Positions 2,625 through 24,988 of a stretch of 64,000 nucleotides of DNA are shown in pieces. Every line of letters starts with the position of its first letter. Positions within the stretch are counted from its first letter, which is position 1. The stretch covers positions 614,175-678,174 of the forward strand of contig CP066693.1 of NCBI GenBank assembly GCA_016432525.1, read 5' to 3'. The notes under the pieces were generated by a model. It was not told the DNA's origin. It searched no databases and worked only from the letters and a program-made list of their open reading frames with translations. The stretch is from Candidatus Woesebacteria bacterium (GTDB lineage: Bacteria > Patescibacteriota > Microgenomatia > UBA8517). The position numbers and the translations under genes were made by a program.

Positions 2625-3840
2625 AGGCGCCTCCTGGATTGGAGCTCTCCGCGTTACCACAAGAGTCATCGCTCTAATAAAAACAACAGTTATCGCACGC
2701 TTGCTCAGTCCTTCAGCCTTCGGAGTATTTGGTATATCTATGGTGGTGATGGCTCTCCTTGAAATACTTACAGAAACTGGTATTAATGTTTTTTTACTTC
2801 AAGAAAAGGATGATGTAGATGAATTTGTAAACACCTCATGGGTTGTTTCAATATTTAGAGGAGTATTGATCGCTATAATACTAGTTTTATGTTCGTCTCT
2901 GGTGGCATCCTTTTTTAAATCTCCAGAAAGTCAACCATTAATTATATTGGTAAGCTTGGTACCTTTAATTAGAGGATTTATCAATCCTTCAGAAATCAAG
3001 TTGCAAAAAGATTTAAAGTTCAAAAAAGACTTTGTGTTTAGATTTACAATTTTCACTTTTGATGCCCTGGTTGCAATCGTTGCAACCTTAATTACTAAAA
3101 ACGCCGCAGGAGCAATCTTTGGTTTAATCGCAGGGGCAATATTAGAAGTAGTATTGTCGTTCTTGATAGTAAAACCAAGGCCAAAATTCATCCTTGAAAT
3201 AGAAAAAACCCGTAAAGTATTGGATAGAGGAAAATGGATAACCGGCGCTGGAATTTTCGATTACCTTTTCGAAAATATAGATGATATAACAGTAGGCCGA
3301 TTTCTCGGATCTGGCCCGCTAGGTCTATATCAAATGGCTTATAAGCTTGCCACGCTTCCAATCACTGAAGTTGCTGATGTATTCGGTAAGGTAACTCTTC
3401 CAATCTATGTAAAAATATCCGGCGACACAAAAAGAATTAAGAGAGCTTTTATCAAATCAACGATAGGAATAGCCTTTCTAACGATTCCTTTTGGAATAGT
3501 ACTAATTCTCTTTTCTAAACAAATTATATTAATAATTCTTGGAAAAAACTGGCTAGATGCAGCTCCGGCTGTTCAATTTATAACCGTTTACGCAATTCTT
3601 CGTGCAATAATTAATCCTGCCCTAACTTTATTTCTATCAGTGAAAAAACAAGAATATGTTACTTCTGTAATTTTGCTCGGTACGATAACACTTGGAATTA
3701 GTATAATTCCTCTTACTGTGAAATTGGGACTAGTAGGAGCAGGAATATCAACAATAATAGCTGTAAGTGTTATGATACCGATGACGATATTTTATACAAT
3801 AAAGCTATTTAACGGAAAATGGACTTCAACGAACGAGTAA
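2599..3840 (+). CDS. Polysaccharide biosynthesis (MOP/Wzx-like) flippase
   Basis: 413 aa with 10-12 predicted TM helices in a Wzx-like arrangement. It overlaps the upstream GT2 by 26 nt. Confidence 0.65.
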   Translation: MGYQKETIKGASWIGALRVTTRVIALIKTTVIARLLSPSAFGVFGISMVVMALLEILTETGINVFLLQEKDDVDEFVNTSWVVSIFRGVLIAIILVLCSSLVASFFKSPESQPLIILVSLVPLIRGFINPSEIKLQKDLKFKKDFVFRFTIFTFDALVAIVATLITKNAAGAIFGLIAGAILEVVLSFLIVKPRPKFILEIEKTRKVLDRGKWITGAGIFDYLFENIDDITVGRFLGSGPLGLYQMAYKLATLPITEVADVFGKVTLPIYVKISGDTKRIKRAFIKSTIGIAFLTIPFGIVLILFSKQIILIILGKNWLDAAPAVQFITVYAILRAIINPALTLFLSVKKQEYVTSVILLGTITLGISIIPLTVKLGLVGAGISTIIAVSVMIPMTIFYTIKLFNGKWTSTNE

Positions 3841-4595
3841 TACCAGATGTTTCTGCAAACTTTCTATATCAAGAAGCATTAGCCAGATATAAATTCGCCC
3901 AAAAATACCTTAAGCCAAAATTCAAAGTATTGGATTTAGGATGCGGAACTGGATATGGCACAAAATTACTAGGCGAAAAAGTGCCCGAAATTATTGGAAT
4001 CGATATCAACAAAGAGGCTATAAATTTTGCGAAAAAAAATTATCCCAAAAAGGCAAATTTCAGAATTGGTAACGTTGAACTATTAAAATTTAAAGATAAT
4101 TATTTTAATTTAATTTGCTCTTTCGAGGTAATAGAACACCTTAAGAATCCACAAAAGAAATATCTTAAGGAAATAAAAAGAGTTTTAAAAAAAGACGGAA
4201 AAGTTATATTTTCAACACCTAACAAAGAAACAAGGTCACCAGAATCTGAAGTTTCAAGCCCATATCATTTTAGAGAATACAAATATTCTGAATTTAAAAA
4301 ACTTTTAAAGAAAAATTTTTCAAAAGTAGAAATCAAAGGGCAATTTAGATCCAAACGAACTAAAAAGGCATTAAAATCCTTTATGAATTCACAAAAAGGA
4401 AGACAAAAAATTGTAGGTTTCGACAAATTGAATTTTAGAAAACTTATTCCTAAAAAATACAAAGAGTGGATTTGGAAATACGTTGGATTTTTTTTTGGAA
4501 GAAGTGATCAAGCTTCACTTAATTTCAAAAATTTCCCAATTCATTCACAAAATATAAAAAATTGTGAATACTTTATAGCTATATGCGAAAAATAA
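3819..4595 (+). CDS. Class I SAM-dependent methyltransferase
   Basis: Motif I reads VLDLGCGTGYGT, and motif post-II follows at LKKDGKVIFSTPN. Confidence 0.75.
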   Translation: MDFNERVIPDVSANFLYQEALARYKFAQKYLKPKFKVLDLGCGTGYGTKLLGEKVPEIIGIDINKEAINFAKKNYPKKANFRIGNVELLKFKDNYFNLICSFEVIEHLKNPQKKYLKEIKRVLKKDGKVIFSTPNKETRSPESEVSSPYHFREYKYSEFKKLLKKNFSKVEIKGQFRSKRTKKALKSFMNSQKGRQKIVGFDKLNFRKLIPKKYKEWIWKYVGFFFGRSDQASLNFKNFPIHSQNIKNCEYFIAICEK

Positions 4596-6739
4596 AACTT
4601 TCTATAGTAATTGTTCATTATGGGGATATAATCAATCTTTGTAATTGTTTAAATTCAATCTTGGAAAGCAAATCTAGAACAATCACCGAAATTATAGTAG
4701 TAGATAATGATGAAGAGGAAACAATTCAAAAAGAACTTCTTACAAAATTTCCAAAAATTAAATACATCAAAAGTAAAGGTAACATTGGCTACGGGGCAGC
4801 CATAAACCTTGGAGTTACAAACTCAAAGGGTGATTATATATTAGTACTAAATTCAGATACTAAAATTTTGGCCCAAACAATCAATATTTTAATACAAGAA
4901 CTTGAAAACAGTCATCAAGCAGGTATTTTAGCCCCAAAATTACTTAATAATAATAGGGAGGAATATGAACAACTCGGATCTTCAGAACTTACTCCTCTAA
5001 GAGCAATTTTTTCGCTTTCATTTTTAAATAAAATTCTACCAAGTAACCCAATATCACGCTCTTATTTCAAAAAGCCAATAAAAGACAAAAAACCATACGA
5101 AGTAGATGTCGTTCCAGGATCGGCTATGGCTATCAGAAGAAAAGCATTCGAAGAAATTAATGGTTTCGACAGCAATTTCTTTCTATATTTTGAGGAATCA
5201 GATTTTTGTAAGAGAATCAAAGAGAAAGGCTGGAAAATATTTATAGTTCCAAATTCAAAACTAATTCATATTTGGGAAGGTAACACTCCAAGAACAAAAA
5301 AAATTAAAAAAATATTTGAGGGAAGTAGATATTATTATTTCAAAAAGCATTATGGAGTTCTAAATGCCTTAATTGTCGAAATTTTCGCTAGATTTTCAAA
5401 ATGGCATGGTTTGTTAATCTTAACCCTCCTTCTTGCTCTTCTCCTAAGATTCTATAGAATTCCACAAAATCTCATCTTTCATGGAGAATTGGGACACAAC
5501 TACCTTGCTATTAAAAATTTAGTTGAATTAAGGCAAATTCCACTTCTTGGCCCTCCTACTTCTCATCCCTGGCTTTCATTCGGTCCACTTTTTTATTGGA
5601 TTTTTGCACCTTTTTTGGTTTTATTTCATTACCAACCAGTTGCCGGCGCATATTTTTTCGCTATCGAAAATCTAATTCTTATAGTAATCAATTTCTATAT
5701 AATAAAGAAAATATTCAACAGTGAAATCGCAGCAATCTCCTCTTATTTAGTTGCAATTTCACCTTTGTGGATGGATTTGACCCGTCAATCTCGTTTCTTT
5801 TCTCTTTCAATCATTTTTCTTTATCCTTTTTTTTATTTCTTAATAAAAATCATTCAAAAAAAATCTCAAAAATTTCTAATCTTAGGATTTTTTTTAGGTC
5901 TCTCTCTAAGTTTTCATCTAACACCTCTTTTTTTGATTCCTTTCACTTTGCTAATTTTCTACATCAATAAAATCCTAGAACTTCAAAAAACAATCAGATT
6001 TTTGGCTGGCTTATTAATTACACAAACCCCTTTTTTTGTATATAATCTAACTCACAAATTTGAAATGTTAACAAAATTTGTTGAATGGGTTCCTTATAGA
6101 ACCCTGACCTCTCAAAAATCATTTTCAGTGAGTCTTTTATATGACTTCATAACTAAAAGTTTTATTACCGATTCCACACTTTCAAAAATCCTATTTTTTC
6201 TCCTTTTAGCAATTATTCTTAATTTAACATTCAAATTCGTAAAAAAAACCAAAAATCCAATTTCAGTGACTCTAATTTGGTTTTATTTTGGAATTATCAC
6301 ACTTTTTATTCATGGAAACCCGCCAAGCCACTACTTAATGCCTCTTTATTTCGTCCCAATTATTTTGCTCTCTTTTGCTCTTTCTAAATCAAATAAATTT
6401 GTTATGTTAGGCTTCCTTGTGGTCATAACTTTCCTAAATTTAAAATTTTATTTTTCAAAAAATTGGTTTTATATTCCAACCAATACAATTCAAAAAAATC
6501 AGACAGTTCCATATCAGTTACAAAACCAAGTTGTTGATTTCATCGTAAGTGATGCAAAAGGCCAGAAATACAACCTTCAAAGGAAAGGTTTTTCAGATCA
6601 ATTTGAAGGAAATTACGCACAAAATTATGTATATTTAGCCTGGCTAAAAGGTAACAAGCCTAGTGAAAATCCTCAAAATCTTGTTTATACAATTGTAGAG
6701 TCGCCTCCAGATATTTCAATAATTAAGAATATAAAATGA
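4583..6739 (+). CDS. Fusion of an N-terminal GT2 domain to a C-terminal GT-C-type (PMT/ArnT-like) multi-TM domain
   Basis: The N-terminus reads SIVIVHYGD...VVDND...GYGAAINLG with an FEESDF motif, typical of GT2. The C-terminal ~400 aa are polytopic, with an RFYRIP...GHNYLA...PPTSHPW loop reminiscent of GT-C family 39/83. Confidence 0.65.
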   Translation: MRKIKLSIVIVHYGDIINLCNCLNSILESKSRTITEIIVVDNDEEETIQKELLTKFPKIKYIKSKGNIGYGAAINLGVTNSKGDYILVLNSDTKILAQTINILIQELENSHQAGILAPKLLNNNREEYEQLGSSELTPLRAIFSLSFLNKILPSNPISRSYFKKPIKDKKPYEVDVVPGSAMAIRRKAFEEINGFDSNFFLYFEESDFCKRIKEKGWKIFIVPNSKLIHIWEGNTPRTKKIKKIFEGSRYYYFKKHYGVLNALIVEIFARFSKWHGLLILTLLLALLLRFYRIPQNLIFHGELGHNYLAIKNLVELRQIPLLGPPTSHPWLSFGPLFYWIFAPFLVLFHYQPVAGAYFFAIENLILIVINFYIIKKIFNSEIAAISSYLVAISPLWMDLTRQSRFFSLSIIFLYPFFYFLIKIIQKKSQKFLILGFFLGLSLSFHLTPLFLIPFTLLIFYINKILELQKTIRFLAGLLITQTPFFVYNLTHKFEMLTKFVEWVPYRTLTSQKSFSVSLLYDFITKSFITDSTLSKILFFLLLAIILNLTFKFVKKTKNPISVTLIWFYFGIITLFIHGNPPSHYLMPLYFVPIILLSFALSKSNKFVMLGFLVVITFLNLKFYFSKNWFYIPTNTIQKNQTVPYQLQNQVVDFIVSDAKGQKYNLQRKGFSDQFEGNYAQNYVYLAWLKGNKPSENPQNLVYTIVESPPDISIIKNIK

Positions 6740-22952: not shown

Positions 22953-23381
22953 ATGGCCCTAAATTTAAATCACAAAGAAAATAAATTCTCAATTGGAGAT
23001 ACAGTCAAAGTTCACCAAAAAATATCAGAGGGTGAAAAAACCAGATCTCAAATATTTGAGGGAATGGTTATTGCAATCAAAAATCGCGATACAGGAAAGT
23101 CTTTCACTGTAAGAAGAATAGGTAGCCAAAAAATAGGAATTGAGGCTATTTTCCCGATCCTTTCTCCAAACATAGAAAAAGTTGAAGTAGTGAGACATGG
23201 TGTTGAAGGGTCTCGTCATGCAAAACTTTACTACACAAGATATAAAAGTAATCGCGAAGTTGAAAAAATTTATTCGCGTTTTATTTCTAAGGAAAAAACA
23301 AAAGCTTTAAAACCTAAAAATAAAGTGACTAAAAAAATGACAAAAGCCAAAACTGCCAAAAAATCTTCGACAAAAAAATAA
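22953..23381 (+). CDS. rplS: 50S ribosomal protein L19 with a Lys-rich C-terminal extension
   Basis: L19 core reads ...FEGMVIAIKNRDTGKSFTVRRIGSQKIGIEAIFPILSPNIEKVEV... and is followed by a Lys-rich tail ending KTAKKSSTKK. Confidence 0.85.
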   Translation: MALNLNHKENKFSIGDTVKVHQKISEGEKTRSQIFEGMVIAIKNRDTGKSFTVRRIGSQKIGIEAIFPILSPNIEKVEVVRHGVEGSRHAKLYYTRYKSNREVEKIYSRFISKEKTKALKPKNKVTKKMTKAKTAKKSSTKK

Positions 23382-23386
23382 TTTTT

Positions 23387-23836
23387 TTATTGGCCTACAA
23401 TTCTGGCACGGCCTAGTTCAACTGCCTTTTTAAGTAGTTCTTTGCGACTCAAAAAAAATATTTCTTTATTACCTTCCTTTTTGGCAATTATTAACCCCAG
23501 GATCAATTGTTTAACTGTATTGGCTTCTTGTTTTCTCAAATAATGGAGTGTCAAAGGAGGCATACCAAATATCTTATGATCAATCTCTAGTGAAGCAAAG
23601 ACCATACTATGTTCAATTATCACATTGGAAATATCATCATACGAAAGGCTAGTTACTCTTTCAGATAAGATAAACGGGCGTTTTATTAAACTAACCTTAT
23701 GTCTATCAACAATCAATATAGAAGGTAACAGGTCAAAAGGAAAAATGGATTTAATTTTCCAAAGAACAGCTTCCCCTCTAGTTATTGCCTTGTCAGACTC
23801 ACGAGATTCAAAAATTATCTTTTTTCTGGTTCCCAC
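23387..23836 (-). CDS. Hypothetical protein (149 aa)
   Basis: GTG start preceded by AAGGA. An extended -10 TGATATAAT lies upstream on the minus strand at 23853-23861. No family was recognised. Confidence 0.4.
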   Translation of the reverse strand: MGTRKKIIFESRESDKAITRGEAVLWKIKSIFPFDLLPSILIVDRHKVSLIKRPFILSERVTSLSYDDISNVIIEHSMVFASLEIDHKIFGMPPLTLHYLRKQEANTVKQLILGLIIAKKEGNKEIFFLSRKELLKKAVELGRARIVGQ

Positions 23837-23925
23837 ATTCCTTGCTACTTACATTATATCATTTCTATTCGTTCCACTTGAAATTTTATTTTTTTGACCT
23901 TTTAATTCATTTACTGACAATTTAT

Positions 23926-23996
23926 TGCACCTGTAGCTCAAAGGCAGAGCATTCCGCTAGATCGGAAGGTTTAGAGGTTCGAATCCTCTCGGGTGC
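23926..23996 (+). tRNA. tRNA-like gene with a canonical acceptor, D-arm and T-arm but an apparent 6-nt anticodon loop (CUAGAU), so the anticodon is unassigned
   Basis: Acceptor stem is gcacctg/cgggtgc with one U-G pair, D-arm is gctc-aaaggca-gagc, anticodon stem ttccg/cggaa is perfect with loop ctagat, variable loop is ggttt, and T-arm is agagg-TTCGAAT-cctct. A candidate -35 TTGACC lies at 23893-23898. Confidence 0.5.
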
Positions 23997-24000
23997 TATG

Positions 24001-24079
24001 GCCAGATATTGGTGGTAATGTACGGGTTGTATCTGTTTCGTCTACCTCCTCCAACACCAATATCTGGTCCTTTTTTTTT
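24001..24079 (+). terminator. Long hairpin followed by a T-run downstream of the tRNA-like gene (putative terminator)
   Basis: The 13-bp stem ccagatattggtg / caccaatatctgg encloses a loop of about 40 nt and is followed by TCC(T)9-10. Confidence 0.4.
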
Positions 24080-24104
24080 ATTTAGTGCTAGAATTAATAT
24101 CTAA

Positions 24105-24593
24105 ATGATAATTCTAGGTATCGACCCAGGAACAGCTACAACTGGATTTGGATTAATTAGCTACAACTATCCCGTCTATGAGGTAATAGATTGGGGTCTT
24201 ATTGAAACCAAAAAAGATTCTTCCCCTGAAGTTCGTCTCGCCAAAATTTACCAAGAAATGCTTTCAATTATTGAACTATACAAGCCCGACGTTTTAGCTA
24301 TGGAAATGCTTTTTTTTGCCACAAACGCAAAAACAGCAATCAAGGTAGGTCAAGCTCAAGGAGTAATTATGCTTTCAGCATCAGCCTTTAATAAAGAAGT
24401 CGTTCAATATGCACCAGGCACCATTAAAAAAGTCATTTCAGGAGATGGGCGTGCTGATAAAATAAAAATGCAAAAAGCTGTCAGAAAGCATTTAGGGTCA
24501 TTTGTTAAAAGTGAAAAAAATAAAAAAACACACTTTGATAATGCAGCAGATGCACTAGCCATAGCTTTATGTCATATTTTTTCAATAAAGTGA
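24105..24593 (+). CDS. ruvC: Holliday junction resolvase RuvC
   Basis: N-terminus reads IILGIDPGTATTGFGLI, and the C-terminus carries the HFDNAADALAIAL catalytic acid context. Confidence 0.85.
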   Translation: MIILGIDPGTATTGFGLISYNYPVYEVIDWGLIETKKDSSPEVRLAKIYQEMLSIIELYKPDVLAMEMLFFATNAKTAIKVGQAQGVIMLSASAFNKEVVQYAPGTIKKVISGDGRADKIKMQKAVRKHLGSFVKSEKNKKTHFDNAADALAIALCHIFSIK

Positions 24594-24988
24594 AGAAAAA
24601 AAGAGGAAAGATTAATTGGGAAAATGCAGTTGATATTCAAAAAAGAATTAATTTCCTTGTCAAAAAGGTACCCATAGATTGGGTTTCACCCAAAAATATT
24701 TATGCATTTAGATCAGTTAATGCAAACACGAGAGCTTATGCTCGTATTTGGGGCTTAGGCAGGATCTGGCAGCAAGCTCTAGATCTAAAGCCTTCCTATC
24801 TAATCGAAGTGATTTCTGAAAAATTTGATCATCTTTCACAGGAACAAAAAGATGAAATACTTCTTCATGAAATAGCTCATATCCCTAAAAATTTTTCAGG
24901 GAGCTTGATGCCACATAAGAGGCGGGGAAAAGGAAATTTTCATGATAAATTGAAACAAATGATTATTCAATATAAAAAAAGTATATGA
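24569..24988 (+). CDS. HExxH-motif putative metal-dependent hydrolase (DUF45/SprT-like)
   Basis: ILLHEIAHIP is followed by ...GNFHDKLK. This is the only recognisable motif. Confidence 0.35.
   Translation: MSYFFNKVKKKRGKINWENAVDIQKRINFLVKKVPIDWVSPKNIYAFRSVNANTRAYARIWGLGRIWQQALDLKPSYLIEVISEKFDHLSQEQKDEILLHEIAHIPKNFSGSLMPHKRRGKGNFHDKLKQMIIQYKKSI

Follow-up and report, generated by a model that had tools for sequence, protein, structure and literature searches.

The DNA analyzed here, referred to as the window, is a stretch of 64,000 nucleotides from a Candidatus Woesebacteria bacterium (Microgenomates, CPR; assembly GCA_016432525.1, contig CP066693.1) with a low GC content of about 34%. At the locus of interest, the genes for GatB, DnaE, and L19 are followed by an open reading frame for 149 amino acids on the minus strand (ORF149), a tRNA-like gene, and the genes for RuvC, an SprT-like metallopeptidase, and HolA (Table 1). 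The small SprT-like gene (PhageMetallopep, PF18894; positions 24569 to 24988) lies immediately downstream of ruvC, often overlapping it, and its presence after ruvC is conserved in these Woesebacteria (window, L001, L037, L038, L040, and L059). The remaining three tRNAs of the window are ordinary (Thr-CGU, Gly-CCC, and Asp-GUC).

TABLE 1 Features of the locus in the window and contents of the slot between L19 and RuvC in related genomes (L numbers; RuvC identity in parentheses)
Sequence	Feature	Position	Strand	Details
Window	ORF149, 149 aa, divergently transcribed	23387-23836	-	
Window	Candidate sigma-70-type promoter, TTGAAA-17 nt-TTTAAT	23878-23906	+	Read by eye
Window	Alternative promoter-like pair, TTGACC-16-GACAAT	23894-23921	+	Scan, 9 of 12 matches
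Window	tRNA-shaped gene, 71 nt	23927-23997	+	ARAGORN, Rfam RF00005, script check of stems
Window	Anticodon arm, 5-bp stem TTCCG/CGGAA around 6-nt loop CTAGAT	23952-23967 (loop, 23957-23962)	+	Script, reading
Window	Long hairpin (basal stem about 15 bp), then nine T's	24000-24069 (T's, 24071-24079)	+	Folding
L037 (96%)	149-aa ORF and tRNA-like gene			Gene uncalled by ARAGORN; Rfam 27.9 bits, below threshold of 29
L038/L039 (86%)	No tRNA			L19 about 50 nt from RuvC
L040 (73%)	Unrelated 655-aa ORF, no tRNA			
L042 (70%)	198-nt spacer with hairpins			
L064/L065 (67%)	No tRNA			L19 about 50 nt from RuvC
L048	First tRNA-shaped gene (L048a)	3656-3822 (pair)		Anticodon loop 11 nt
L048	Second tRNA-shaped gene (L048b)	3656-3822 (pair)		Anticodon loop 6 nt (TGTAAA); in four separate contigs
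L049	First tRNA-shaped gene (L049a)	2512-2680 (pair)		Anticodon loop 9 nt
L049	Second tRNA-shaped gene (L049b)	2512-2680 (pair)		Anticodon loop 7 nt; C33
L046	First tRNA-shaped gene (L046a)	1770-2016 (pair)		Anticodon loop 7 nt; anticodon AUU
L046	Second tRNA-shaped gene (L046b)	1770-2016 (pair)		Anticodon loop 7 nt; stop anticodon UUA
L066	First tRNA-shaped gene (L066a)	4390-4542 (pair)		Anticodon loop 7 nt; G33; Ser anticodon on short-arm body
L066	Second tRNA-shaped gene (L066b)	4390-4542 (pair)		Anticodon loop 7 nt; CAU, looks normal

The gene has a tRNA fold and a six-nucleotide anticodon loop

The original prediction had described a tRNA-like gene with an anomalous 6-nt anticodon loop, and ARAGORN, Rfam, and a script check of the stems all bear this out, although the span given, 23926 to 23996, was one base too far to the left. 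The gene reads GCACCTG TA GCTC AAAGGCA GAGC A TTCCG CTAGAT CGGAA GGTTT AGAGG TTCGAAT CCTCT CGGGTGC T; it ends in the discriminator U73, and CCA is not encoded. ARAGORN reports it as "tRNA-??? anticodon (ag)," with a two-base anticodon and without the normal isotype that would have spoken against the oddity. The Rfam model RF00005 matches at 54.4 bits (gathering score, 29 bits) over its full length (1 to 71), which places the gene within the tRNA fold, and in the central part of the anticodon loop its alignment has 4 nt where the model has 5. All 21 stem pairs (stems of 7, 4, 5, and 5 bp) are standard by the script check, and the positions involved in tertiary contacts are canonical by reading (U8, A14, A15:U48, G18, G19, A21, and the T-loop UUCGAAU), in agreement with the 7-bp acceptor stem, canonical D-arm, and TTCGAAT T-arm described before.

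The anticodon loop departs from this pattern. A decoder has a 7-nt loop with U33, a purine at position 37, and a 3-nt anticodon, whereas the loop here, CUAGAU, has 6 nt; if one stem pair is opened, the resulting 8-nt loop has C33 and U37. As the original prediction had stated, no standard 7-nt loop can be drawn, and this RNA cannot serve as an ordinary decoder. No other RNA family was matched in the whole window in a permissive Rfam scan (E ≤ 0.5), and over positions 23840 to 24110, RF00005 was the sole match even at E ≤ 10, with no hit to tmRNA, Y-RNA-like, or other curated tRNA-like RNAs. ARAGORN likewise found no tmRNA in the window.

An assembly indel had been offered as one explanation, according to which sequencing or assembly dropped one base of a normal 7-nt loop. 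Apart from the general likelihood of indels when metagenomes are assembled, nothing speaks for this, and we consider it exceedingly improbable. The tRNA and its flanks are identical in the Logan assemblies of two different runs (SRR12113414 and SRR12113388) and in NCBI assembly GCA_016178105.1, so that, together with the window, four assemblies agree, and an indel is effectively excluded because of this agreement. The three further assemblies draw on at least two separate read sets and are 99.97 to 100% identical to the window over 7 to 20 kb, a near-identity that confirms the base call and carries no evolutionary information. In addition, the CTAGAT context is not a homopolymer, and an unrelated second 6-nt loop (TGTAAA) is found in four separate metagenome contigs of another lineage.

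Putative signals for an independent transcription unit

Upstream of the gene, a promoter-like TTGACC had been pointed out. This hexamer is present and is followed 16 nt on by GACAAT; however, hits of this kind are as frequent in shuffled sequence (3 found, 2.9 expected), and both hexamers are weaker in the nearest relative, L037 (TTGCCC and GACAGT). The better candidate is TTGAAA-17-TTTAAT, which was found by eye and is not among the hits of the promoter scan. It ends about 20 nt upstream of the 5' end of the tRNA-like gene, and its counterpart in L037 reads TTGAAA-17-TATAAT.

The hairpin-terminator-like structure reported downstream proved to be real (z = -5.7, with a T-run of nine). It folds at -28.6 kcal/mol (z = -5.66; 0 of 200 shuffles fold as well) and has no Rfam match (23840 to 24110, E ≤ 10). 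In its arms, the window and L037 agree at 16/16 and 15/16 positions, compared with 67% identity in the interior. The hairpin and T-run are likely the intrinsic terminator predicted for the tRNA-like transcript, and the promoter-like site, gene, and hairpin have the layout of a putative independent small transcription unit. In L037, the interior of the terminator hairpin (4851 to 4925) repeats the T-loop motif GTTCGAATCCT.

Farther downstream, at positions 24086 to 24107, an extended -10-like sequence, TGcTAGAAT, lies about 10 nt upstream of the ruvC ATG. The ruvC genes of relatives also have a -10-like hexamer at a comparable distance from the start codon (TAGAAT, TACAAT, TAGTAT, or TATAAT). 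Given the closeness of this hexamer to the ATG, ruvC may be translated from a leaderless or near-leaderless mRNA.

The body has weak similarity to tRNA-Arg(ACG)

The original prediction had considered a Leu or Ser identity from the embedded UAG and AGA triplets. This is unsupported; the best matches of the body, though weak, are to tRNA-Arg(ACG), with the missing base placed at C35. In BLAST searches against E. coli, all nine hits were to tRNA-Arg, albeit weak (E = 6), and the best annotated hit among phages was to tRNA-Arg(acg) (E = 4e-3). A MAFFT alignment with tRNA-Arg(ACG) covers the whole cloverleaf, and its sole internal gap falls at C35 (CTA-GAT versus CTACGAA). Arginyl-tRNA synthetase recognizes C35 and an A or G discriminator at position 73. 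The window gene lacks C35 and has C at position 20 and U at position 73, and A20 has also been named as an arginine identity element (PMC8629427). Thus, the gene is similar to the canonical bacterial tRNA-Arg(ACG) in that this is its best sequence match over the whole cloverleaf but differs from it at all three of these positions and in not being conserved even among close relatives. A plain tRNA-Arg(ACG) minus C35 was rejected as a description of the gene, with A20 and A/G73 also missing and tRNA-Arg(ACG) appearing to be lacking in CPR (PMC8629427). The Arg-like body minus base 35 is a hint about ancestry, not identity.

Could the gene nevertheless be a working decoder with an unusual mode of reading, either a -1 frameshifting or two-base reader or, with G31-C39 opened, a tRNA with a 4-bp stem and the 8-nt loop GCUAGAUC? 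The tRNA fold and the predicted expression signals are intact, frameshifting is known for tRNAs whose loop size is altered, and structural work has shown a normal tRNA reading two bases (PMC12202706). Known doublet decoding, however, uses a 7-nt loop (PMC12202706), and neither drawing of the window loop offers U33 with a purine at position 37. The literature searched yielded no natural tRNA of bacteria whose anticodon loop has 6 nt and nothing specific on odd tRNAs in CPR. Moreover, the loop is not conserved in L037, and among the 45 long, tightly packed open reading frames of the window, none is interrupted or split or needs frameshift or stop suppression. We therefore regard an unusual decoder as improbable. 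The genes of the window use CGN codons regularly (per 1,000 codons: CGU, 5.7; CGC, 3.9; CGA, 2.6; CGG, 0.3), so that another tRNA must read them.

No orthologue, sought as a tRNA with this anticodon stem and a loop of 5 to 9 nt, was found in 185,579 species-representative genomes; the anticodon-arm scan of these genomes (GAGCATTCCGN{5,9}CGGAAGGTT) returned 33 hits, all of them chance matches. One such chance hit, in the chromosome of Cyclobacterium xiamenense (L008, 5351 to 5420), lies in a tRNA-like stretch (GAGTTTAGCTCAGTTGGTTCAGAGCATTCCG ATTACCAT CGGAAGGTT...) with an 8-nt loop and no obvious T-arm. When viral contigs were scanned for the tRNA body, with the anticodon arm left unconstrained, there were 0 hits.

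The slot between L19 and RuvC varies among close relatives

The gene order GatCAB-MFS-GatB-DnaE-L19-[slot]-RuvC is conserved in close relatives, whereas the content of the slot is not (Table 1). The tRNA-like gene is thus restricted to a narrow lineage and evolves fast. Strong conservation among close relatives, as would be expected of a decoder, is not seen: the window and L037 share 70% identity over the tRNA segment, with 35 gap columns, compared with 82 to 90% for core genes, and the slot is empty of tRNA at 86%, 73%, and 67% RuvC identity. In L042, the sequence GCACCC-19 nt-GGGTGC was seen by eye in the spacer, but a three-way alignment gave no support for its being a collapsed remnant of the gene.

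The L037 copy (4746 to 4849) is instructive. Its anticodon stem encloses 41 nt, with a perfect 22-nt palindrome, TTCACAAAGTGCACTTTGTGAA. Its body does not look Arg-like and gave weak Asn hits in BLAST. Among the 21 stem pairs compared with the window, 10 are unchanged, 7 are changed on both sides and still paired, and 4 are broken (6:67, 7:66, 49:65, and 50:64), while about 11 broken pairs would be expected if as many stem bases were substituted at random (P = 0.0007). This comparison suggests that selection has maintained the stems or, alternatively, that each copy derives from a different working tRNA; neither the primary sequence nor the anticodon loop was maintained between them.

These data bear on the possibility that the gene is a recently inactivated tRNA with no function, that is, a redundant copy of the tRNA-Arg(NCG) type that lost base 35, whose body is intact only because little time has elapsed and which has decayed in L037 or been deleted in sister lineages. 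We take this explanation seriously, although we doubt that it is the right one. It would account for the sole gap at C35 in the alignment with tRNA-Arg(ACG), for the absence of the gene from, or its damage in, the nearest relatives, and for the divergence of the tRNA segment at near the four-fold-site rate, and the CGN codons must be read by another tRNA in any case. However, four-fold degenerate sites are only 54 to 70% identical between the window and L037, and still the window body shows no broken pair and no damaged tertiary position, which argues for structural selection during most of that time. Furthermore, with A20 absent and U73 present, the gene had departed from the typical tRNA-Arg already before base 35 was lost. 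The failure to find a tRNA with this stem and a 5- to 9-nt loop among the 185,579 genomes and the reported lack of tRNA-Arg(ACG) in CPR (PMC8629427) also count against decay, as do the genes found in distant lineages described below.

The block from L19 through ORF149 to the promoter is 89 to 96% identical between the window and L037. From 22953 to 23926, four-fold sites are 80 to 84% identical, compared with 54 to 70% in the surrounding genes, and the identity falls sharply at about 23900. This pattern suggests a recent recombination tract that ends at the 5' edge of the tRNA-like gene.

The gene could also be the relic of a mobile element, being or having been an integration site or having been carried in as cargo with ORF149. 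ORF149, the tRNA-like gene, and the hairpin together form an insertion relative to the relatives at 86% and 67%, the high four-fold identity just described suggests recent exchange with L037, and the T-loop motif is repeated in the L037 hairpin interior. Against this, there is no integrase or transposase nearby, the viral-contig scan gave no hits, and ORF149 has no PHROGs or PADLOC hit. An att-site or mobile-element scar was also rejected: the window is free of direct repeats of the tRNA 3' end, and the hairpin arms have no further copies in it. ORF149 has four relatives only, and the one with 82% identity lies in another neighborhood with no tRNA, which also rules out an obligatory linkage of the two genes; ORF149 accompanies the tRNA-like gene in the window and L037 and occurs elsewhere without it. 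We give the mobile-element explanation little credence. ORF149 has no hit in Pfam or NCBIfam either, and its AF2 model (pLDDT of 62) has no significant fold match (best E = 0.2), with faint PH-domain-like fragments only.

tRNA-shaped genes with odd loops occupy the same slot in distant Microgenomates

In Microgenomates at 61 to 66% RuvC identity, tRNA-shaped genes lie in pairs, with hairpins after them, within the interval DnaE-L19-YraN-...-RuvC. The order is DnaE-L19-YraN-two tRNAs-hairpins-RuvC in L046, L048, and L049 and similar in L066 (Table 1). These pairs are putative homologs of the window gene, by synteny only. The survey of the slot sampled six lineages, and the segmentation of its tRNA-shaped genes was checked by script. 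With the window and L037 included, 7 of the 10 slot genes break the rule of a 7-nt loop with U33, an eighth has a stop anticodon, and only 1 looks normal; in contrast, the tRNAs found outside the slot are ordinary (8 of 8). BLAST gave weak, mixed hits as to the isotype of L037, L046b, and L049b.

A comparison of L048 with L049 is informative with regard to the stems. While DnaE and RuvC differ by 16 to 18% between the two, and the identity of the tRNA-like genes is 86% and 76%, all 42 stem pairs remain paired, with three double and three wobble-compatible changes; for L048b versus L049b, the retention of stems has a P value of 0.0005. The slot pattern of stems being kept and anticodon loops being variable suggests that the body, but not the anticodon, is under selection. 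The recurrence of well-paired tRNA-shaped genes with odd loops in this slot is a further argument against simple decay of the window gene.

Several other features of these loci were observed. A mismatched first acceptor pair (U:U or U:C) is conserved in L048 and L049. The non-coding flanks of the pair (L048, 3560 to 3619 and 3860 to 3979) are 95 to 97% identical to those of L049, above the coding sequences of DnaE and RuvC (83 to 84%), and these flanking intergenic segments look like non-coding elements under strong constraint. In L066, about 200 nt directly after the tRNA pair (4543 to 4750) are strongly structured (-94.8 kcal/mol, z = -7.4); this segment ends in a terminator-like hairpin, has no Rfam match, and begins TAGGCCAGA, resembling the element after the window tRNA-like gene (ATGGCCAGA).

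The presence of CUA, UUA, and UCA in slot loops brought up stop-codon suppression as a role. This idea is unsupported: CUA does not lie at the anticodon position in the 6-nt loop, the slot loops are rich in A and T, TAA and TGA serve as stops in the normal way, and no gene was seen to be interrupted.

A putative tRNA-derived RNA kept for its shape

Among the options named in the original prediction, a pseudo-tRNA or a tRNA-like element fits the evidence best. We put at about even the chance that the locus is a genuine chromosomal gene for a non-decoding tRNA-derived RNA of this kind that is kept for its shape. It has the properties of a pseudo-tRNA, namely, tRNA shape and no normal decoding, on structural grounds only, these being the 6-nt loop and the missing identity elements. 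In this scheme, the RNA would be transcribed on its own, its transcript would be trimmed by the ordinary tRNA-processing enzymes, and CCA would be added after transcription. The 6-nt loop is unable to form the usual U-turn, with three stacked anticodon bases followed by purine 37, and charging by arginyl-tRNA synthetase is unlikely because C35 and A20 are absent and the discriminator is U73. If the RNA is retained at all, its tRNA shape is therefore the probable reason; it might, for instance, serve as a tRNA-like module or processing handle of a transcript that ends in the conserved hairpin.

We favor retention for shape for three reasons: the body is undamaged despite near-saturated neutral divergence from the nearest relative, stems are kept through compensatory changes in three independent comparisons, and odd-loop, well-paired look-alikes recur at one chromosomal slot. 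On the other hand, the gene is dispensable over short distances, as is evident from its absence at 86%, 73%, and 67% RuvC identity, and the L037 copy, with its 4 broken pairs, scores 27.9 bits. It should also be considered that the stem pairs changed on both sides between the window and L037 could have arisen when one tRNA was replaced by another, and not through selection in place, since the L037 body does not look Arg-like.

More tentatively, and with a probability that we place well short of even, the window gene may belong to a class of RNAs in Microgenomates that are tRNA-shaped, do not decode, and have not been described before. Such RNAs would come from one gene or a pair of genes in the rplS-(yraN)-ruvC slot, with a conserved structured RNA downstream, and selection would act on the acceptor, D-, and T-arms, leaving the anticodon arm free in length (6 to 41 nt) and sequence. 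Their role could be to serve the downstream RNA as a processing handle or tRNA mimic, or to engage a tRNA-binding factor as a decoy or partner.

Comparison with known systems and significance

Staphylococcus has cell-wall tRNA-Gly isoacceptors with a role outside ribosomal decoding, which have sequence peculiarities and a normal anticodon loop and are charged by the synthetase. The window gene is proposed to be similar in being a tRNA gene with a nonribosomal role but has neither the normal loop nor an identifiable route to charging. The frameshift suppressors SufB2 and SufJ, with their 8-nt loops, likewise combine a normal tRNA body with a loop that is not 7 nt long; their loops, however, are enlarged and give +1 shifts, whereas the window loop is shortened. 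Natural -1 doublet reading involves a normal 7-nt loop (PMC12202706), and for the window gene there is no visible target gene.

The closest documented kind appears to be the tRNA-Other gene of Bacillus cereus, which is also a chromosomal tRNA-shaped gene predicted not to work in translation (PMC3399842). It has been proposed to be a tRNA-like element inside a larger regulatory RNA, and the experiments on it include a deletion phenotype, RACE mapping, and iron regulation (PMC3399842). The two genes differ in that tRNA-Other is experimentally supported, while the window gene is known here from sequence, and in that the defect of the window gene is specifically its 6-nt anticodon loop; the likeness shown is one of kind.

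Annotation pipelines either omit genes such as this one or give them the label of a tRNA of unknown type. Counting the gene as a decoder would make the tRNA set of the organism and any inference about its genetic code wrong, and discarding it as an artifact would mean the loss of a real RNA. Should plain decay be the explanation after all, the locus would be a clean example of a redundant tRNA gene dying in a reduced genome. In the very small genomes of CPR bacteria, a tRNA-shaped gene in which compensatory change preserves the stems, but whose anticodon loop cannot decode, is a candidate for a tRNA-like function outside translation, of which few bacterial examples are documented. The value of the finding lies mainly in the comparative pattern, with odd-loop look-alikes recurring at the rplS-ruvC slot.
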